This document shows, piece after piece, positions 4,682 through 57,800 of a DNA stretch of 64,000 nucleotides. Both the position numbers and the translations under genes were made by a program. Source of the stretch: a virus; IMG/VR virus record IMGVR_UViG_3300036820_000007, positions 1 to 64,000 of that record. One strand, written 5' to 3'. The number at the start of each line of letters is the position of its first letter. Position 1 is the stretch's first letter. Under the pieces are notes generated by a model. The model had not been told where the DNA came from. It did no database searches and saw only the letters and a program-made list of their open reading frames with translations.

Positions 4682-4687
4682 TTAGTG

Positions 4688-4969
4688 CTACTCGCCTTTG
4701 ACCTTGACCACGCGCACCGGTACAGCGTCGATCTGCCAGCCGCCCGGCGCGCTCGGGTCGCGGTGGTGGCCGTGCCAGAGGCCGCCGCGCCCGTCTCCGC
4801 CCCGGCGTTCGTCGTCGGGAATGACGTCAACCCGGGTCATTGGCCGGCCGCGCTCGTCGGTCAGTCCTACGTGGATCTCCACCACGCAGCCGTCTGTTTC
4901 GATGTGCATGACGTTCCCGGAGCGGTTGTGCCCCGCGTAGAACGTTTCCCGCCTCATTGGCGCAGGCAT
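4688..4969 (-). CDS. hypothetical protein
   Basis: ORF with GAGAGGAG RBS. Confidence 0.6.
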   Translation of the reverse strand: MPAPMRRETFYAGHNRSGNVMHIETDGCVVEIHVGLTDERGRPMTRVDVIPDDERRGGDGRGGLWHGHHRDPSAPGGWQIDAVPVRVVKVKGE

Positions 4970-5244
4970 TATGCGGTCTCCTCTCGTGTTGGGTTACTGT
5001 CCGTTGCTACGGGGATGACCACCCCGAGTTCCCGCAATTCCTCCAGGACCGCCGGGGAACTGACCGCGAGGGCAACCGTCCTCCCGGCCGCATCGGTCCC
5101 CAAAACCAGCACCGGGTCCGGGCCGAGATCACGGGTCATTTCTCTGGTGACCGCATCGATATTCATGAAACCTCTTTCCGGTTCTGTGCCTGGCGGCACA
5201 TCCCCGCCTACGGCTTGGTACCGCAGGCGGGAAATGCGCCAGGA

Positions 5245-5514
5245 TCAGGAATAGCGCGCGTTGCGCCGGTCTTCCTTGGCCGCGCTCTCGCTGTAGTCGT
5301 CGTCCTCGTCCTCTTCGGCATCGCTGAACATGGACACCGGGAGCGTTCCGCTGCCGCCGCAGATCGCGCACGGCCCCTCGTAATCCGGTTCGTCGTACGT
5401 ACGGTGCGACTCGCCCCGGTAGGTGCTCTGCCCGCTGCCGTCACAGGTTGTGCAGTAGGTCAGCGGGTTGCCGTCCTGGTCGGTGCCCACGATGGGCAGA
5501 TCGTCAAGCGCCAT
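5245..5514 (-). CDS. small Zn-finger protein (DnaJ-like CxxCxGxG x2)
   Basis: CTTCDGSG and CAICGGSG; RBS GAGAGGAGG. Confidence 0.65.
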   Translation of the reverse strand: MALDDLPIVGTDQDGNPLTYCTTCDGSGQSTYRGESHRTYDEPDYEGPCAICGGSGTLPVSMFSDAEEDEDDDYSESAAKEDRRNARYS

Positions 5515-6000: not shown

Positions 6001-6393
6001 GCGCTCAGCGCCTCCGGCCGGGTGGCCTCCGCAAAGTGCTCCCGGTACTTCCGGTGTGCTGCCTGCTGGTTCATGCGCTCCCCGAACGGCTCCCCGCATT
6101 CGCAGATCCCTGCGTACCCCGGGTAGGTGGGGATGGAGAAATACCGGTGACCGGCATTGCGGGGGAGCGGTGGTGCGGCCTGCCCGGCCGCTGGCGCGTT
6201 CACGGCCTGAACGCGGCGAGGTGGCGAAGGTCGGCCCCGTCCCGCGTGGCTGCCGCTCGCTGTGACCGCTGGCCAGCAGCGAGCCGGATGGCCGCGCGCC
6301 GTACTCGTGGCGGACTTCCCAGAGCGCGCTCGGCTGCTCGGCGCTGTCTGCGCTCGGCTTCCCTCATTGACGGCATGGTGTCTCCTCTCGAAT

Positions 6394-29240: not shown

Positions 29241-32200
29241 ATGCCGGCCAGCCCCCGCACAATCATGCGCGCGCTCAAGGCGACCGCGCCGACGCCAGCG
29301 CAAGGCGGCTACAGCAGCAGTGCCGGGCCTTTTCTGAGCGGGGGGCCGTCGCCACTGGTCGCCTCGTATTCGGAGTGGGCCTCAGGGCATGCCTACGGGC
29401 AGTCCAACGCCTTGCCGCGGGACTGGCAGTCGTTCCTGTCGGGCATGTTCGGGCCCGGCGTGCCGGTGCGGCCAGTCCCGATCGATGTCCCGAAGCCCGG
29501 GGATGAGCGCCCGGAACCGCGTCGCTGGCAGTATCCCATCTCCTGGGACCTCAATCTAGGACAACCCGGTACAGAAGGTATCGGCAAACTAGCTGATTTC
29601 AATACACTTCGGACGCTGGCGGACATGTATTCGGTCGCCCGCAGCTGCATCCAGCTGCGGAAGTCCGAACTCCGCGGCGTGGGCTGGGACATCGCGCCGA
29701 CCAAGGACGCCAGCAAGGCGATGCGGGGCGACCACAAGGGCATGACCGAGTTCGCCAAGCGCCGGGCAGAGGCCGTGCGCTTTTTCAGGAGGCCGGACGA
29801 GAACTTTGCGGACTTCACCTCATGGTTTGACGCCATGCTTGAGGAGATCTTCGTCACTGACGCGCTCGCGCTTTATGTCCACCCATCGCGCCTGCCGGGC
29901 AAAGGGCTCTTTGGCTCGAACGTGGGGGCTCTCGACCTGATCGATGGGTCCCTTATTAAGCCTTTGGTCGATGTGCGCGGTTCGCGTCCTTCGCCACCGC
30001 AAGTGGCGTATCAGCAGTATTCATACGGCGTGCCCCGTGTGGACCTTATGTCCCTGATTCTGGACCGCGAAGACATGGGCGCCCCCGAAGCCGAATACCG
30101 CGGCGACCAGCTGATGTACCTGCCGCTATGCCAGCGTACGTGGTCGCCTTATGGGGAGTCGCCCGTCGAGAGGGCGATTATCCCGATCATGGCAGGGCTG
30201 CGTAAGCAGCAGTTTGTCCTAAATTACTTCGATGAGCGAAGTATTCCCGGGTGCTTCGTGTCCCCTGGTGACCCGAATATGACACCAAGTCAGATTCGTG
30301 AGCTTCAAGATGCTTTGAACAGCATTGCGGGCGACCAGACCTGGCAGCAGAAGATCATCGTCCTGCCGGGCGGCTCGAAAGTGGACCCGCAGAAGCCGAT
30401 CACGTTGGCGGACGCTTTCGACAACGTTGTCATGATTCAGGTATGTATGGCCTTCGACGTGATGCCGTTCGAGCTCGGCATCATGCCCGAGGTCTCCACG
30501 ACCGTGGCCTCCGGCGCGGCCCGGCAGATGGCGACCGCTGCCCAGGACATCCAGGAGCGCAAAGGCACCGTCCCGTTGCTGCTCTTCCTGAAGATGGCGA
30601 TCTTCGACCGCATCATCCAAGATGTATGTGGTATGTCCGACATGGAGTGGCAATGGGAGGGTTTGGAAGAGGACGAAGACGAACAAATCCTGACAGAACT
30701 CCTAGTCGCCCAGGTTGGCTCCGGCATGTGCTCGATCGACGAGGCCCGCCAGGAGCTCAACCGCGAGCCCTGGGGCCTGCCGATCACCTCCGACCCGGGC
30801 TGGGCCACCCAGTGGGGCGGCTTCGTCCCGCTCACCGGACTGGCGGGCGCGACCGCCCAGCAGCAGGGCGGCTCGCCAGCTCCGGGCAACCCGCAAGGCA
30901 AGCCGAACGCCCAGCCAGGCACTGTGCAGGGAAAGCCCGCCGACCTGACGCTGCCATCCGAAGTCGAGCACCGCGGCGCGCCCTCACCGGTGTCGGCAAC
31001 CGTCCCTGCCACGCGGCCACGTAACCAGCAGTCACGTGGCCAGCGCCGCCAGGTTGCGGCAACCGTCAGCGATCGCCAGCGGCGCACCGGGGCCACCACC
31101 CCCGCTCACGCAGCGGCAATGGCCACCGGTGGCCGCGGACCGAAATCCGGAGCGTCATCCAAGGGAGATGCTACCCGCGAGCTCGGCCTGCTGAAGGCAC
31201 ATCTGCGCCGCGGTGGCAGGGTCACCGACTGGGAGCCGCGTGACATCCCCGGCCACGCCATGGCCACTATCAGCGAGGACCTGGCCAAGGGCCTGACCGC
31301 TGATCAGGCATGCGACATAGTCCGCGACTTGATCACCAAGGACGGCAAGTCGATCACCTTGTCCTCGCCACTCGGCACCGGGTTCGTCCCGTACGACCTG
31401 GTCGGCCAGCGCCGCCCGTCGGCCGAAAGCCCGGCAGCGGCGGGCCTGGCCGTCCTCGCCGCGGACACGGGCCGCGTGCTCATGCTGCAGCGCGCTGCGA
31501 GCGATGACGATCCGGCTTCGGGGTGCTGGGAGTTCCCCGGCGGCTGCCTCGAGGATGGCGAGGACCCGGCGATGGGCGCAATGCGCGAATGGGCTGAGGA
31601 GGTCGGAGCATACTGCCCTGCTGGCGAGCCCGCAGGCGGCTGGACCTCGGCGGACGGTGTGTACGCAGGCCACATCCTGGTCGTCCCGTCCGAGGCGGCA
31701 GTACCCGTGCATGGCGATCGCGACGAGGTGTCCAATCCGGACGACCCGGACGGGGATGCAATCGAGGCAATCGCCTGGTTCGACCCTGCGCAGATCCCCG
31801 GCAACCCCGCGGTCCGCGACGAGCTCCGCGCCGATGCTCTCGCGGTGCTGCGCGCCCTGGCCGCCGCCCTGCCTGGTGGCGTAATCAAGAACGCGGCCGA
31901 TCTCTCGGACCCGAATCCCGTCGAGTCCGAGCACGTGAAGAATCAAATGCGCCGAAATTATCCAGAAAAGGCGCTCGGGTGGATCGACGGTGCCCGGTGG
32001 CTCGGCCCGGTCCGGATCCCGCAGGACCGCATCGACTACGACGACATGGACAAGTGGGCCGCTTCCCACCAGAAGGCCCGCGTTAAGCATTTCGCCCGCC
32101 AGATCGAGGACGACGAGTCTCACCTGCACCCCGTTGTCGCCGTCCAGGAGCCAGGCGAAAACAAGATCAAGGTGATCGATGGCCACCACCGCACCCTTGC

Positions 32201-32390
32201 CTACCGCAAGCTCGGCCAGCCTGTGAAGGCCTACGTCGGCTTCGTCGACCACGACGGCGGCGAGTGGGATGAGACCCACGCCTTCCAGTTCCACCAGGGC
32301 GAGGACCCGGCCAACAAGGGCGGTGGTGCCGGCCCAAAAGTTCGAGCAAGCGGGCCATCTGGCCCGGGCAGTGGCGGGACGAGCAGCTAG
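29241..32390 (+). CDS. portal protein fused to Nudix hydrolase and ParB/Srx-like domains
   Basis: Portal core (YGESPVE, YFDERSIPG, SIDEARQEL); Nudix box GGCLEDGEDPAMGAMREWAEEVG; VIDGHHR. Confidence 0.85.
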   Translation: MPASPRTIMRALKATAPTPAQGGYSSSAGPFLSGGPSPLVASYSEWASGHAYGQSNALPRDWQSFLSGMFGPGVPVRPVPIDVPKPGDERPEPRRWQYPISWDLNLGQPGTEGIGKLADFNTLRTLADMYSVARSCIQLRKSELRGVGWDIAPTKDASKAMRGDHKGMTEFAKRRAEAVRFFRRPDENFADFTSWFDAMLEEIFVTDALALYVHPSRLPGKGLFGSNVGALDLIDGSLIKPLVDVRGSRPSPPQVAYQQYSYGVPRVDLMSLILDREDMGAPEAEYRGDQLMYLPLCQRTWSPYGESPVERAIIPIMAGLRKQQFVLNYFDERSIPGCFVSPGDPNMTPSQIRELQDALNSIAGDQTWQQKIIVLPGGSKVDPQKPITLADAFDNVVMIQVCMAFDVMPFELGIMPEVSTTVASGAARQMATAAQDIQERKGTVPLLLFLKMAIFDRIIQDVCGMSDMEWQWEGLEEDEDEQILTELLVAQVGSGMCSIDEARQELNREPWGLPITSDPGWATQWGGFVPLTGLAGATAQQQGGSPAPGNPQGKPNAQPGTVQGKPADLTLPSEVEHRGAPSPVSATVPATRPRNQQSRGQRRQVAATVSDRQRRTGATTPAHAAAMATGGRGPKSGASSKGDATRELGLLKAHLRRGGRVTDWEPRDIPGHAMATISEDLAKGLTADQACDIVRDLITKDGKSITLSSPLGTGFVPYDLVGQRRPSAESPAAAGLAVLAADTGRVLMLQRAASDDDPASGCWEFPGGCLEDGEDPAMGAMREWAEEVGAYCPAGEPAGGWTSADGVYAGHILVVPSEAAVPVHGDRDEVSNPDDPDGDAIEAIAWFDPAQIPGNPAVRDELRADALAVLRALAAALPGGVIKNAADLSDPNPVESEHVKNQMRRNYPEKALGWIDGARWLGPVRIPQDRIDYDDMDKWAASHQKARVKHFARQIEDDESHLHPVVAVQEPGENKIKVIDGHHRTLAYRKLGQPVKAYVGFVDHDGGEWDETHAFQFHQGEDPANKGGGAGPKVRASGPSGPGSGGTSS
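32333..32339 (+). other. putative -1 frameshift site C CCA AAA (portal to MuF)
   Basis: -1 frame is open from 32273 to 34294 with no start codon before 32606; same GGCCCAAAAG as the tail chaperone site. Confidence 0.75.
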
Positions 32391-34294
32391 CTGACGAGTA
32401 CGCCCAGGACTTCTCCCGCCAGCTGGCCGCCGCGGTCAACGCGGAACTGATCGCTCAGGGCTGGCTGGACGAATGCCAGGCCGCCGAAAAGGCCAGCAGG
32501 CCGCAGCAGAGCCAGAGTCAGCAGCAACGGCAGCAGCAGCAAGCCCGCCAGCAGCAGGCCCGGAGGTACCTGGCGGCGGCCGGGGTCACCGGCGCGATCG
32601 CCTCGGTGATCGGTGGCATCCTCGCCCTTCTCTGGCGCGCTGCGTTCGCGCTCGGCTGGGCCGCGGCCATCCAGATCCTCGGCGTGGGCGGCCTGGTCGG
32701 CGACGAGGCCGCGCTGGGAGACCTGCTCTCGCAGTCCGGGCCGCGGCTGGACGGCATCGTCGAGACACGCATCAAGCGTCTCGAGCAGGCCCTGGCCGCC
32801 GCAGCGGACTCGGGCGTCTCGGCCGGTGAGCTTGCCCAGCAGATCACGGCGATCCTTGGCGGCCGAGCTCCGGCCCGGCTGGTGACCCAGACGGAAACGT
32901 CGTGGGGTGCCGGTCACGCGCAGGTGGCCGCTTACCGAGCAGCCGGAGTGGCGCAAGTTATCTGGCAGACGATGAACGACTCCGAAGTGTGTTTCCCTGC
33001 CGGAACGCCGGTGGCGACGCCCTCAGGCGATGTCCTGATCGAATCCCTGAGGCCCGGTGATCTCGTCCTCACCCCACAGGGGCAGCGTGCCGTCCGTGAT
33101 ACCGGTAGTCGGCTTTACGCGGGCTGCGTCACGGTGCTTGAGGCGGAAGGGGCGACGGTCGCTGCGACGGACGATCATCCGTTCTGGACCGCCGCTGGCT
33201 GGCGGAAGGCGGGACAGCTCGAGCCCGGGGACCTCCTGCAGACGTCCGAGAACCAGTTCGCAGAGGTCGGCCGCGTTGTTCACGTCCGATTCGGCAAGCC
33301 GGACGACGTGCCAGCCCATCTGCCGGAGCGCCCTGTCCTTGATGGCGTCGCTCTCGGGACGCAATTGGTGCCAGTACTCCCCATCGGCCTCAAGGGCGAT
33401 CCATGCTTCCGTGAGAGCGAAGTCGATCGTCCAGTTTTTGACTTGCAGTTCCTGAACGAAGCTGATCCCGAGAGCCGCGAGCGCTTGCCTGACGCGAAAC
33501 TCGAGCATGGTTTCACCCGTGAACTTGCGATAACAGCTGCGGGAGCAAAATCGTCGACCGTTAGCCGGAGCGGAGGGGACGATCCGGAAGCAGTTGCCGC
33601 AGTTGGCGCAGTCCATGTAGACGGGCGGCCGACGGCACTCTTCGGAGCAGTGGTGCCGAGGGTATCGCTTGTCGGCCAGGAACCGGTTGCCGCACCGTTC
33701 GCAGTTGAGGTACTCGGTGTCGGCTGTGGTGCACGCCCTGGAGCAGGTGTTGTACCTGTCAGCGGTGGACTGGCTGACGCTGAATTCCTTCCCGCAGACG
33801 GTGCAGTGCTTAGTGACGCGCCGACTGGAACCCATGCATTCGCGCGAGCAGTAGGCCCGGTCCTGGCGCCCGGTCGTGCAGCCGGGCGCAGGCTGGCGGG
33901 GGTCGAATTGCTTACCGCAGCCGAGGCACTCCCGGGTGGGATAGACGATAGTGTCGGCATGGTAGCAGTCCCTGGAGCAATAGACATGCTCCTTCTTGGT
34001 TCGGCTGCGACGCTGGAAACCTTTGCCACAATGGTCGCAGATGTATGGGAAAGGCATCCTAATGCTCGCGTCCTCGATCTAGGGGAAATCAATGCGCCAT
34101 TGACAGTTTACAATATTGAAGTAGAAGTTGAGCACGTATTTTATGCGTGTCGCTTCCTTGTGCACAATTGCGGTCGATGCCATGGCAATCAAGCAGCAGG
34201 CCCGTGGCCACTGGGCAGCCCATTCCCGAGTGGGGCGCTCAGTCCGCCACAACATCCCAGATGTCGTTGCTTTTTGCGACCTTCCGGACATTAG
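32333..34294 (+). CDS. MuF/gp7-like head morphogenesis protein with intein
   Basis: TETSW; spliced VCGRC; HPRCRC. Confidence 0.82.
   Translation, partial: PKSSSKRAIWPGQWRDEQLADEYAQDFSRQLAAAVNAELIAQGWLDECQAAEKASRPQQSQSQQQRQQQQARQQQARRYLAAAGVTGAIASVIGGILALLWRAAFALGWAAAIQILGVGGLVGDEAALGDLLSQSGPRLDGIVETRIKRLEQALAAAADSGVSAGELAQQITAILGGRAPARLVTQTETSWGAGHAQVAAYRAAGVAQVIWQTMNDSEVCFPAGTPVATPSGDVLIESLRPGDLVLTPQGQRAVRDTGSRLYAGCVTVLEAEGATVAATDDHPFWTAAGWRKAGQLEPGDLLQTSENQFAEVGRVVHVRFGKPDDVPAHLPERPVLDGVALGTQLVPVLPIGLKGDPCFRESEVDRPVFDLQFLNEADPESRERLPDAKLEHGFTRELAITAAGAKSSTVSRSGGDDPEAVAAVGAVHVDGRPTALFGAVVPRVSLVGQEPVAAPFAVEVLGVGCGARPGAGVVPVSGGLADAEFLPADGAVLSDAPTGTHAFARAVGPVLAPGRAAGRRLAGVELLTAAEALPGGIDDSVGMVAVPGAIDMLLLGSAATLETFATMVADVWERHPNARVLDLGEINAPLTVYNIEVEVEHVFYACRFLVHNCGRCHGNQAAGPWPLGSPFPSGALSPPQHPRCRCFLRPSGH
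32990..34168 (+). mobile_element. intein (393 aa) in MuF
   Basis: Block A CFPAGTPV, block B TDDHPFW, block F VYNIEVE, block G VHN followed by Cys. Confidence 0.9.
33023..34057 (-). CDS. Zn-finger-repeat plus DUF559/Vsr-like endonuclease, antisense inside the intein
   Basis: Five CxxC...CSxxC repeats; IDFA, LEADGEYWH, KDRAL, GWHVVRL. Confidence 0.85.
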   Translation of the reverse strand: MPFPYICDHCGKGFQRRSRTKKEHVYCSRDCYHADTIVYPTRECLGCGKQFDPRQPAPGCTTGRQDRAYCSRECMGSSRRVTKHCTVCGKEFSVSQSTADRYNTCSRACTTADTEYLNCERCGNRFLADKRYPRHHCSEECRRPPVYMDCANCGNCFRIVPSAPANGRRFCSRSCYRKFTGETMLEFRVRQALAALGISFVQELQVKNWTIDFALTEAWIALEADGEYWHQLRPESDAIKDRALRQMGWHVVRLAESDVNNAADLCELVLGRLQEVPGLELSRLPPASGGPERMIVRRSDRRPFRLKHRDAARVKPTTGITDGTLPLWGEDEITGPQGFDQDIA

Positions 34295-53940: not shown

Positions 53941-54081
53941 GTATGTCCGTTTTTGACATCCACGCTTCTCTTCCTGCTCTATCCACCGCCTGCCGCAGCC
54001 TACGCCGCTGCGGCAGGCGTTCTGCTTACCGCCGTTCTCGCCGAGCTGCTTTCCGGGGCCTGGCGATCTGAGAGGAACCCC

Positions 54082-54495
54082 ATGACCGCCGAAGTGCGCG
54101 CTATGCCGCGCCCCGGTCCAGAGGAAGAGCCGGCCGACGCGCCGCAGATCCTGCGGCTGAAGACCGCCCCGAAAGGGGCCAAGCGCAAGCGCGAGACCCT
54201 CTTCTACATCGACGACGTTGAGTACAGCGTCGAAGTCCACCCCTCGCCGGCGCGATCGCTGAAGTACCTGAAGCTGATGCGCGACGAAGGCGCTGACATC
54301 GCCACCCAGTACATGCTCGAGAACTTGCTCGGCACCGAGGGCTACCAGGCGCTCATGGAGTACGAGGACCTGACCGACGAGCAGTTCGAGCAGGTGGTCA
54401 CCGCCGCCAGCAAGATCATGCTGGGATCGTTCGAAGGCCCAAAAGAGCAGCAGAAGAGGCCGCAGCGCCGGTCGCGTGGGTCCTCTCGTACCTAG
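54082..54495 (+). CDS. tail assembly chaperone (G)
   Basis: Position before tape measure; slippery GGC CCA AAA near the end. Confidence 0.8.
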   Translation: MTAEVRAMPRPGPEEEPADAPQILRLKTAPKGAKRKRETLFYIDDVEYSVEVHPSPARSLKYLKLMRDEGADIATQYMLENLLGTEGYQALMEYEDLTDEQFEQVVTAASKIMLGSFEGPKEQQKRPQRRSRGSSRT

Positions 54496-54860
54496 ACGAC
54501 GTCTGCTCAGACCTGAGCGTCTTCCACGGCATCCGTGACGCAGGCGAAGAACTCGACGGGCCCACCTTTTTTGCCCTGGCCATCCGGCTGCCCGCCTATC
54601 AGGGGGCCATGGCCGCCCGGCTGGCGAACGAAATCGCCGAAGAAGAGCAGGCAAGCCCATCCGTGCGCGCGGCCGTGCCGAGGTCTTCGCCGGGCGCGCC
54701 CAGCGGCAGCGGGGGAGACGCGGCCGCCCGGTTCCGGGCCCAGGCGAGCGCGCCCATCGCCACTGCGGCAGAACTCGCGTCCATGTCCGCGCCGGTGGGC
54801 AGTATGCCGGCCCTCGGGGACGTAGTTCAGGTGAAGGCGCCCGGGGCCGGCTCCCCGTAA
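54438..54860 (+). CDS. tail assembly chaperone -1 frameshift extension (GT)
   Basis: -1 frame from CCCAAAA (54438-54444) reads ...WVLSYLDDVCSDLSVFHGI...LPAYQGAMAARL to the stop at 54860. Confidence 0.8.
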   Translation, partial: PKRAAEEAAAPVAWVLSYLDDVCSDLSVFHGIRDAGEELDGPTFFALAIRLPAYQGAMAARLANEIAEEEQASPSVRAAVPRSSPGAPSGSGGDAAARFRAQASAPIATAAELASMSAPVGSMPALGDVVQVKAPGAGSP

Positions 54861-54866
54861 GAGGGG

Positions 54867-57800
54867 GTGCTTGCGATCCCGGACGGATTTCGCATCGCTA
54901 GCGCGTACGTAGATGTCAGCCTTAATCAGGACGAACTGCTGCGCCAGCTCGGCGAAGTCGAAGCCGAACTCGACGACCTGACGGCAACGGTCAAGTTCGA
55001 CATCGACCAGAGCAGCCTGGCGGACGCGATCGAGAAAGCCAAGCAGGAGTTTGCGTCCCAGGCTGCCGGGATGCCTGTCGGGTTCGACATCTCCGCGGCG
55101 AGTGTCGCCAAGGCCATCGAGGACGCGAAGGAACTCTTCAGGGCCGCGGGCGTGGCCATGCCGGTCACATTCAATGTGATGCAGCGCAGCATGGGCGCTG
55201 CAGTTTCTGCGGCAAAGGCGTACTTCAGGGCGAACCCGGCGATTATGCCGGTCACATTCAGCGTGACGCAGCGCAGCATGCAAGCTGCCCGCTCTGCCGC
55301 GAATGCGTACTTCAGGGCGAACCCAGTGTCGGTTCCGCTGACGTTCGATGTCAGCCTCGCCAGCCTGGCGAGGGCCACCTTCGGGATATCCCGGTTCGTC
55401 AACGGGCTCTCGGTTCTCACCGGAAGGGCCTACGACGCCACCGGCGCCCTGGTGGTGCTGGACGCAGAACTGGATCGCAAGCAGGCCGCGCTTGCGGGGA
55501 CCGCTTTCGACGCGGGCGCCCTCGGTGCCGTTATCGCCGCCCTGAAGGTCAGAACGGACGGCGCTACCGCAGCAGCCGCGCGCGGCGCGCGCGGCTGGAC
55601 CATCTGGGGCCAGAACGCGGCCACTGTCATCCACTGGATCATCAGCGGATCGGCCGAACTGCTGGCGGTTCTGGTCCCGGCCACGGTCGCCGCTGGGGCG
55701 TGGGCATTCGCCTGGGTTCAGGGTGCGACCAACGTTTACCAGCACCTGAATGCCCTGTTTACCGCTACCGAAGCGCTTGGCCAGGCGTCTGGGCAGACGT
55801 ATGGCGAAATGCTGGGCCTCAAAGGCGTCTGGCAGCAGATTCAGAACGAGGCTAACCCGGACGTCTACCAGGCGCTCGGGGGTGCCCTGAACGTCATTAA
55901 AGAGCAGTTTGGCGGTCTTGCTGAGACGGGCCTGCAGGTCGGCCAGGTATTCGACACGTTCATGGCCAAGCTGGTCTACGACTTCTCGGCCGCAGGGGGC
56001 GCTGGCCAGACCACGGACAAGATCCTGCAGAACATGATTCCTGACCTTACCCGGGTCGGGCAAGTGTTCGGGAACCTAGGGCATTTCATTGCCTCCGCCG
56101 CCTCCCAGATGCCCGGGCTGGCCGAACTCCTCTTGCGCATCCTGGCGGATGGCATCGGTCTCGCATCGGCCCTTGCGCAACTGGCGGCCAGGTTCCAGGT
56201 CGCCGGCATTTCGATCCTCACCTTGGTCATGGGCCTGGAGGAATTCAACCGCTGGGGCTCCCTTATCGTGACCGTGCTGGGCAAGATGGGCCTCGCCACT
56301 GCCGAGCTCAGCGGCGGAACGGGCAGCTACTTCCTTGTCGGCGACCGGTTCCTCGGCATTCTCAAAAACATTTACGGCATCGTGCCAAACCTGGCATTCG
56401 GGATCGCCAGCTTGGCCAGCAGAATCCCCTTGTTTGGTGCCGCAGTCGTGGGTGCCACGGATGACGTTGAGGCCGCAAGGGCCGCATTCATTGGCTGGAT
56501 CGACGACCTGAGCGCTCTGCAGACGCTCGGGATTCTCGTGGTCGCCGTCGGCCTGGGCATCCTGATCGACAAGTGGGTTACGGCCACTTCGGCCGCTCAG
56601 AACTTCACGGCCGCGATCAACAAGCAGGTCGAGGCAGCCCGGGGGCTGAACACCCTCCCCGCCCTCGGTAATGCCCTGGACGATCTTACCCAGAGGCTGA
56701 ATCAGTCGCAGCATTCTGTCGCGGCGCTCCAGGCGTCGATGCCAGCGCTGGCGTCATCGACCACCAGGGCCGGGGTGGCTGCATACGGTTACCGGGCCGG
56801 GCTGGCAGCACAGGCCAGTGGCCTGGACACGGCCAGGGCGGCAAGCCAAACCTACCTGAAGTCGCTGGACCAGCAGGCCCAGAACGTGGGGCTCGCCACG
56901 CACAACGCCCAGATGCTGGCGAACACCTATCACATCTCGGTGCCAGCGGCGATGGCCCTGGCGGGTGCGGCGAACGTGTCGCTGGTCGGCCAGCTGAAGA
57001 CCCAGAGCGGTGCATGGACTGCTGCGGGAGAGCAGATCCGCGACTACGTCACCGGCCTGGGTGCGATGGGCACCGCGTCCGGGATGGTCGGTAACGACAT
57101 GCTGGCCCTGGCGATCCAGGAGGGCGAGCAGGGGACAAAGGTTGAGCAGCTCAACCAGGCCTGGGACTCGTTCATGCAGAACCTGACCGGCGGCACCTCG
57201 GACCTTGGCTCCTTTATCCAGGCCATGGGCAATCTGACCAATATCACCAACACCACGAAGTTCACCCTTTCGCAGTCGACCGAGGGAATGTCGCTGTCGG
57301 TATCACAGTTCGCCAAGGCGCTGACCGGCACCAGCCAGACGTCCGCCCAGGCATGGCAGAACTTCGACCAAGTCCTCGGGTCGACGATGCCGCAGCTTAC
57401 GGACTGGTTCCGCATTGCCCAGGCGGAAGGGGCCGCTACCGGACCCCAGGTTTCCAAGTCCGTCCTGGACATGGCCGCGTCCCTGGTGAAGTACGCGGCC
57501 GACAGTAAGCCCGCGCAGGCTGAACTTCTCGGATTCGTCAATGCCGCTGGCATGAACATCCAGACCTTCCCTCAGCTGGAGAAGGCCATCAAAGCCACGG
57601 GTGCCAGTACCGGGAATCTGTCGAAGAATGTCGATCAGGCCACGATCAAGATGGGCGACATGGCGCAGATCGCCCAGAATCTTGGCGACGTTATGAACTC
57701 GCAGGTTACCAGTTCGATTTCCAATGCCTCGCTGAAAGCTTCTGGGTACTACAACGATGTAAAGAATCTGACCGAAGCCCTGCACGACAACGGCACGGTC

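Follow-up and report, generated by a model that had tools for sequence, protein, structure and literature searches.

How does a phage make its MuF head protein when the reading frame of MuF holds no canonical start codon ahead of the conserved amino terminus and lies one base out of step with the portal gene that it overlaps? MuF is a conserved head gene, and in SPP1 its product, gp7, binds the portal in a few copies per head. The question is raised by the portal-MuF junction of the window, as we call the whole 64-kb stretch of soil phage DNA that was analyzed (IMG/VR record IMGVR_UViG_3300036820_000007, positions 1 to 64,000), which comes from a metagenome and has a depth of about 10.7. Our comparison of this junction with those of its relatives makes it very probable that it is a programmed -1 ribosomal frameshift, and supports the interpretation put forward in an earlier reading made from the nucleotides of the window alone (the sequence-only reading).

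Layout of the portal-MuF junction

The upstream open reading frame (ORF), which defines the zero frame, encodes in this order a portal core, a Nudix domain, a ParB/Srx-like DGHHR domain, a G-rich linker and a tail of 16 residues that follows the candidate slip site. It matches Phage_portal and NUDIX in Pfam and MutT/NUDIX and ParB-like families in PHROGs, and the annotation of its homologues is portal/ParB/Sulfiredoxin. An open -1 frame spans 32273-34294 and, as it would be read after a slip, encodes a linker (SSSKRAI), the MuF amino terminus (WPGQWRDEQLADEYAQ), a Q-rich linker, a hydrophobic segment and a MuF (SPP1 gp7) core that is split by an intein. The conserved amino-terminal motif of MuF, WPGxW..D..LA..A..L....WL, is encoded in this frame from 32360. 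Portal and MuF do not form a single continuous ORF in the window, MuF being in the -1 frame and the zero frame ending at 32390, and a portal-MuF fusion chain can exist in this phage only if a -1 shift occurs. The coordinates of the features are collected in Table 1.

The sequence-only reading had described a MuF frame that is open from 32273 and without ATG, GTG or TTG until 32606, and both statements hold for the window. It had put the trans-frame product at ~1690 aa; the computed length is 1684 aa before splicing and 1291 aa once the intein is removed. The junction peptide that it gave, GGGAGPKSSKR, is indeed at the junction but is one serine short, the actual order being ...GGGAGPK-SSSKR.... 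The zero-frame stop has the context CAG CTA GC (window 32385-32390), in which CTA is a very rare leucine codon.

Within 32273-32360, C_CCA_AAA is the sole heptamer of the form X_XXY_YYZ, and the portal frame reads it as GGC CCA AAA G, in slippery phase, as the earlier reading had noticed. We suggest that ribosomes on the portal-Nudix-ParB ORF reach this heptamer and that a fraction of them would slip back by one base, the P-site tRNA-Pro moving from CCA to CCC and the A-site tRNA-Lys from AAA to AAA. The slip would probably be aided by pairing of the ribosomal RNA (rRNA) to AAGGGCGGTGGTG and by the CGGGCC/GGCCCG hairpin. Non-shifting ribosomes would stop 16 codons later and release the portal-Nudix-ParB protein, while shifting ribosomes would continue into MuF and produce a portal-Nudix-ParB-MuF chain, to be shortened by intein splicing. 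Portal rings assembled from both products would contain some subunits that carry MuF and others that lack it.

Table 1. Features of the portal-MuF junction and of the second slippery site, in window coordinates.
Feature	Position	Strand	Remarks
Portal-Nudix-ParB ORF (zero frame)	29241..32390	+	1049 aa; predicted unshifted product
Purine-rich element AAGGGCGGTGGTG	32316..32328	+	Complementary to the 16S rRNA 3' end; ends 4 nt before the heptamer
Slippery heptamer C_CCA_AAA	32333..32339	+	X_XXY_YYZ phase of the portal frame
-1 frame as read after the slip	32339..34294	+	651 codons
Hairpin	32351..32366	+	CGGGCC (32351-32356), loop ATCT, GGCCCG (32361-32366); 3' arm is the MuF W-P-G codons
Zero-frame stop TAG	32388..32390	+	Spans the rare Leu codon CTA in the MuF Q-L-A motif
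GTG, first canonical start in the MuF frame	32606..32608	+	89 codons past the slip point; 90th codon of the -1 read
Intein	32990..34168	+	393 aa; inserted just ahead of the first Cys of the MuF CxxC motif
Second C_CCA_AAA	54438..54444	+	Same phase; near the end of the presumed tail assembly chaperone G ORF 53953..54495

The offset between the two frames recurs in other data. In the Logan assembly of the probable source run, the sequence agrees with the window throughout 31900-33000 and has no gap there; this was a comparison between contigs, in which rare length variants may be hidden. Among portal homologues, P0006 is the closest (91% identical). It is on a separate contig, is known from its protein end and finishes as ...LPKAPSGPGSGGMSS*, 12 residues past its P-K, and this tail reads the WPG region off-frame in the same manner as the tail in the window. 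In run X4, which belongs to a different soil study, a ~93%-identical contig also covers the junction; its deletions there total 12 nt, a multiple of three, so that the frame offset is kept.

Conservation of the probable slip site and its surroundings

The string CCCAAAA occurs three times in the 64 kb, against 2.4 expected, and is thus not in excess over chance; what stands above chance is the conservation of the heptamer in relatives. The third copy (window 5099-5105) is read CCC AAA in ORF 4685..5254 and is in slippery phase for neither long plus-strand ORF. Our first set comprised 20 junctions, namely that of the window and those of 19 further loci, among them the cultured Arthrobacter phages Sonali and Mufasa8. 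All 20 have NNC CCA AAA at the junction, a few codons before WPGW. The codon ahead of CCA AAA encodes G, S, R, D, H, L, N or F, and its third base is C throughout. The portals of Sonali and Mufasa8 are only ~26% identical to the window portal, yet heptamer and junction are the same. These two phages were reached by the search with the portal core only, megablast and tblastn searches of the junction and of MuF against cultured phages having given no match.

Codon usage gives a measure of how far the peptide could account for this. In these ORFs CCA makes up 7.8% of proline codons, AAA 26% of lysine codons and C 49% of third positions, and CCA AAA encodes not one of the 23 further P-K dipeptides found in them. 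If only the x-P-K peptide were under selection, the heptamer would be expected in ~1% of lineages. Free-standing MuF genes are without it. The heptamer is thus conserved at the nucleotide level beyond what the peptide would require. The sequence-only reading had named loss of the heptamer in relatives as an outcome that would count against it; the heptamer proved to be invariant in diverged relatives, with the one exception discussed below. The base after the heptamer is nearly always G (CCCAAAAG), which makes the first codon of the -1 frame AGC or AGT (Ser); in L018 and L048 it is C. It was also seen that the heptamer travels with the MuF amino terminus and not with the ParB domain.

The heptamer is flanked by candidate stimulatory signals on both sides. 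The upstream element AAGGGCGGTGGTG is a putative stimulator of the dnaX type. Its duplex with the anti-Shine-Dalgarno (anti-SD) sequence is worth -14.1 kcal/mol, which places it at the 0.7th percentile of random positions in the locus, and over the 20 junctions (18 nt before the heptamer) the median percentile of anti-SD pairing is 0.02; in L058 the element reads GGAGGTGATGA. On the downstream side, the CGGGCC/GGCCCG hairpin reported by the earlier reading is present. The downstream fold is stabler than the local median in 19 of the 20 junctions, with a median percentile of 0.12, and most relatives have a stronger hairpin than the window at the equivalent position. It typically starts 5-12 nt past the heptamer, its 3' arm formed by the WPGW codons (GCCGGGCTGG) and its 5' arm by the variable linker. 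The codons of the 5' arm GCCCGG are GCC CGG in L054 and L074, whereas L055 and L058 divide it as (A)GC CCG G, and its maintenance in differing reading frames points to selection at the level of the RNA, not of the peptide. Taken together, the Shine-Dalgarno (SD)-like element, the heptamer and the hairpin resemble the three-part signal of dnaX.

A wider view came from scanning viral contigs for a pattern in which WPGW codons come after the heptamer; the scan returned at least 120 stretches, and those with a long head-gene ORF upstream and MuF downstream were counted as loci. Among the matches listed, MuF is in frame 0 in at least ~45 loci, in the -1 frame in at least 17 and in the +1 frame in at most one. 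Most relatives thus appear to have the reverse of the arrangement in the window: the unshifted product would be the fusion and the shifted product the form that lacks MuF. In the in-frame junctions of the first set the -1 frame is 1-12 codons long without exception (17/17), where the background frame length has a median of 51 codons and is 12 codons or less at 18% of positions; among the matches listed, a few in-frame loci have a -1 frame of 35-47 codons. In the window, in L016 (which was assembled twice, as L014 and L016) and in L053, MuF instead occupies the -1 frame, and it is the zero frame that ends early, within 11-16 codons; among the matches listed, loci with the polarity of the window have a zero frame of 7-23 codons. 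Of 19 loci of this polarity, 13 offer no canonical start in the interval from the last -1-frame stop to WPGW. In 9 the opening of the -1 frame comes only 1-2 codons ahead of the heptamer, which leaves that site as the place of the shift. Loci of both polarities would obtain the same two products from a -1 slip, a head protein with MuF and one without.

The codons that supply the early stops can be named in several cases. In L016 (about 6040-6046) the zero-frame stop is formed as in the window, and the same CTA codon is present in L079 and in L002 and L003, both free-standing. Many in-frame relatives obtain their -1-frame TGA from CGT GAC or CAT GAC in a W-E-R/H-D motif, where rarer codons are used.

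The 10-mer GGCCCAAAAG, which contains the heptamer, recurs in the window at 54436-54445 in the same phase, as had been reported. The -1 frame of the ORF in which it lies (53953..54495) extends as far as 54860, shortly before the tape measure gene, which begins at 54867. Overlapping frames of the G/GT type, with a slippery site, are thus found between the major tail gene and the tape measure gene. The sequence-only reading had treated this site as an internal control; gene order and frames fit that use, but the presumed chaperone could not be placed in a protein family, as set out next.

Points against and alternative explanations

Several observations weigh against programmed frameshifting at the portal-MuF junction. 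The hairpin in the window has 6 bp, begins 11 nt past the heptamer and reaches -14.2 kcal/mol, which is the 35th percentile locally, so that the window's own downstream stimulator is present but weak. One in-frame portal-MuF fusion, L045, is without the heptamer, from which it follows that the site is not obligatory for a fusion. In this locus (L045:1755-6149) there is neither a P-K nor a CCCAAAA before WPGW (...DDGTGGQAWPGWFSD), and it is the sole exception found. The lineages are related, so the junction counts are not counts of independent events. As to the tail site, neither the presumed chaperone G nor its -1 extension (window 54082-54860) has a PHROG match. A look through the listed sequencing runs turned up no RNA run.

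The explanation that competes best with a frameshift, though we consider it unlikely, is that MuF is made on its own, either from the GTG at 32606, and then minus its first ~90 residues, or from a non-canonical codon such as the ATC at 32357. Gene callers do start MuF of close relatives at the codon that corresponds to 32606: the database search gave three near homologues, P0003-P0005, and all of them are called from it; in P0005 it is an ATG. The ATC, for its part, stands one codon ahead of WPG. However, a start at 32606 would drop the WPGxW..D..LA part of the amino terminus, which is conserved in every relative, and the anti-SD complementarity before both codons is at background level (-6.3 kcal/mol before the GTG and -4.4 kcal/mol before the ATC). 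A start within the -1 frame also fits poorly with the relatives of the same polarity, in which this frame opens so close to the heptamer and in which no near-cognate start is conserved. It would, moreover, leave both the invariant heptamer and the scarcity of +1 arrangements unexplained.

Free-standing MuF genes show where the protein begins when it does have a start of its own. In L001 MuF is free-standing, with a GGAGG and a GTG, and its amino terminus aligns with the -1 frame of the window well upstream of 32606; ten more free-standing MuF genes from metagenomes have their own starts a few residues ahead of WPGW..D..LA. Since these amino termini align, the 89 codons between the slip site and 32606 are conserved coding sequence that lies beyond the reach of any canonical start here. 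An independent start of MuF was among the outcomes that the sequence-only reading had itself named as refuting its proposal, and the conserved amino terminus turns out to have no usable start in the window. Internal initiation driven by the SD-like element was considered and rejected, as the only nearby GTG or ATG is in the +1 frame, which stops at 32394. Transcriptional slippage was rejected as well, a run of four A being too short for it.

Quite improbable is a recent decay of the locus, in which an in-frame fusion would have been hit by a frameshift mutation in the linker, with the result that this phage has ceased to make MuF. Relatives do differ in the length of the linker that follows the heptamer. 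On the other hand, the -1 frame has stayed open over its full length, with MuF and the splice motifs of the intein intact; the polarity is kept in relatives at 91%, about 93% and about 35% identity; the zero-frame stop is supplied by the rare CTA codon in L016 as in the window; and MuF is a conserved head gene.

MuF and its intein can also be placed by their family matches. The MuF core in the window matches PF04233 with E = 0.0058, which is under the Pfam cut-off because the intein splits the domain, while PHROG 19480 (head morphogenesis) matches at 1.8e-9, and the homologues P0003-P0005, which are intein-free and 64-89% identical, carry PF04233. These three homologues also fix the insertion point of the intein. 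The intein starts with CFPAG, contains TDDH and ends in VHN followed by C, and it matches Hint_2 at 1.7e-11; by these motifs it belongs to the Hint superfamily, and it would be expected to splice. An ORF of 344 aa with an ATG start (window 33023-34057, minus strand) lies antisense to the middle of the intein, where the plus-strand translation (33023-34057) looks non-globular.

It could also be argued that C_CCA_AAA is conserved for a reason other than slippage, with the peptide P-K, for instance, as the place where a maturation protease separates portal from MuF, or with the sequence as a recognition site in DNA or RNA. This we regard as very improbable, even though the domain boundary of the fusions has a conserved P-K with a small residue after it (except in L045, which has no P-K), and even though cleavage there would also release MuF. 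Selection on a peptide would fix neither two rare codons nor the last base of a codon whose amino acid varies. Such an explanation would also fail to account for the early stop in the alternative frame, for the scarcity of +1 arrangements and for the expression of MuF in loci of -1 polarity. Cleavage at P-K and frameshifting are not mutually exclusive.

That the offset is a sequencing or assembly indel in what is really an in-frame fusion like that of Sonali, an outcome that the sequence-only reading had also named as refuting its proposal and that might be suspected from a metagenome of modest depth and from the in-frame fusion being the commoner arrangement among the matches listed, is scarcely credible, given the identical Logan assembly, the offset in P0006 and in the X4 relative, and at least 17 further loci that share the polarity, each with a short zero-frame tail ended by a stop.

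Apart from the choice of frame, the relatives differ in the order of their modules. L020:1370-5287 has an unknown amino-terminal part, then the heptamer, MuF with an intein, a ParB-like domain, a Nudix domain and a Zn-ribbon-like tail. Further modules seen in other relatives are a 2H phosphoesterase (L001 and L019) and an ADP-ribosyltransferase (PF03496: P0025, P0028 and P0079). A scan of genome contigs returned one locus only, L037 (L037:1-1437, on the contig DATJBA010000227.1 of a Mycobacterium sp. metagenome-assembled genome), with a shuffled domain order and no junction in view. In L001, two genes on the opposite strand (L001:4821-5755, minus) lie between the portal-Nudix gene and the free-standing MuF, which shows that rearrangement has a hotspot at the junction; the product of one of these inserted genes has 113 aa and resembles a small winged-helix regulator.

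Comparison with known systems and biological meaning

In Escherichia coli, dnaX yields tau and gamma by programmed -1 frameshifting, with an SD-like element ~10 nt upstream, a slippery heptamer and a downstream hairpin. The portal-MuF junction is like dnaX in having candidates for all three parts of the signal, and in an X_XXY_YYZ heptamer that ends in lysine codons. In the commoner polarity of the relatives the likeness would extend to the products, since a shifted ribosome would stop almost immediately, and a full-length and a truncated protein would enter one assembly as tau and gamma do. It differs from dnaX in the heptamer itself (C_CCA_AAA in place of A_AAA_AAG), in its place in a phage head gene and, as far as the window is concerned, in that the shift would extend the protein.

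The other obvious comparison is with the -1 frameshift in tail assembly chaperones of the lambda G/GT type, for which PMC7302621 and PMC7911831 cite Xu, Hendrix and Duda (2004). In the chaperone genes, as proposed for our junction, a conserved -1 shift close to the end of a structural gene appends a second domain and sets the proportion of the two products. At its own chaperone site the window apparently employs the 10-mer GGCCCAAAAG again. Unlike in G/GT, the genes at our junction are portal and MuF, the downstream protein is free-standing in many relatives, and both polarities occur.

Fusions of portal and MuF are not new in themselves. In-frame fusions have been described for the Microbacterium phage clusters EA3, EA5, EA8 and EB (PMC7302621), and gene 3 of Sonali is annotated as "portal and MuF-like fusion protein". 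These actinophage fusions share with the shifted product predicted here the combination of portal and MuF on one polypeptide, and Sonali and Mufasa8 also have a Nudix domain and the same heptamer at the junction. They are annotated as single ORFs without recoding (for the Microbacterium phages, this is by description), in contrast to the window, where the two parts are in different frames. MuF proteins with variable carboxy-terminal effector domains (Jamet et al., 2017; PMC5576092), as cited in PMC7911831, and the MuF-VIP2 fusions described in PMC7302621 are a further parallel, in so far as MuF is joined to enzyme domains (Nudix and ParB-like, with 2H phosphoesterase and ADP-ribosyltransferase in relatives). 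The enzyme domains of the window differ from these effectors in their position, on the portal and upstream of MuF instead of at the carboxy terminus of MuF.

As for recoding at such junctions, the tail chaperone shift is the only frameshift in a structural gene discussed in PMC7302621 and PMC7911831. The PRFect paper has MuF-like/VIP2 gene pairs among its unconfirmed predictions and does not mention the portal. Our literature search, which covered portal and MuF frameshifting, PRFect and Sonali, found no report of a portal-MuF frameshift. Among portal-MuF junctions, that of the window is a further case of the rarer polarity, here combined with a portal that bears Nudix and ParB domains and a MuF that holds an intein.

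The sequence-only reading had the fusion as a minority product, with the slip site setting the stoichiometry of MuF. A role in stoichiometry is conceivable; "minority" finds no support, because the reversed polarity of most relatives suggests that comparable amounts of the two products may be needed. A tentative extension of this thought, somewhat less likely than not, is that the junction acts as a tuned toggle. With a fairly high shift efficiency, in the tens of percent, it would determine the number of portal subunits, out of twelve, that bear MuF together with its cargo of enzymes. The extension further supposes that its polarity has flipped repeatedly in evolution, because both products would be needed in comparable amounts. 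If so, it would stand for a widespread and previously unrecognized class of recoding in phage head assembly.

If the junction is indeed a frameshift site, this would have consequences for annotation as well as for biology. Portal-MuF loci are currently annotated either as a plain fusion or as two genes with a truncated MuF, and each of these annotations would leave one product out; for MuF, starts called at positions like 32606 would be mistaken across a whole group of soil actinophage-like viruses. Portal-MuF frameshifting would be a second conserved class of frameshift in structural genes beside that of the tail chaperones, and its natural swaps of polarity would be unusual among recoding sites. 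Bench tests are feasible, since Sonali and Mufasa8, both of them in culture, carry the site. For the phages themselves, it would provide a simple genetic route to a mixed portal ring, and with it a means of dosing MuF and the enzymes attached to it, be they Nudix, ParB-like or others.

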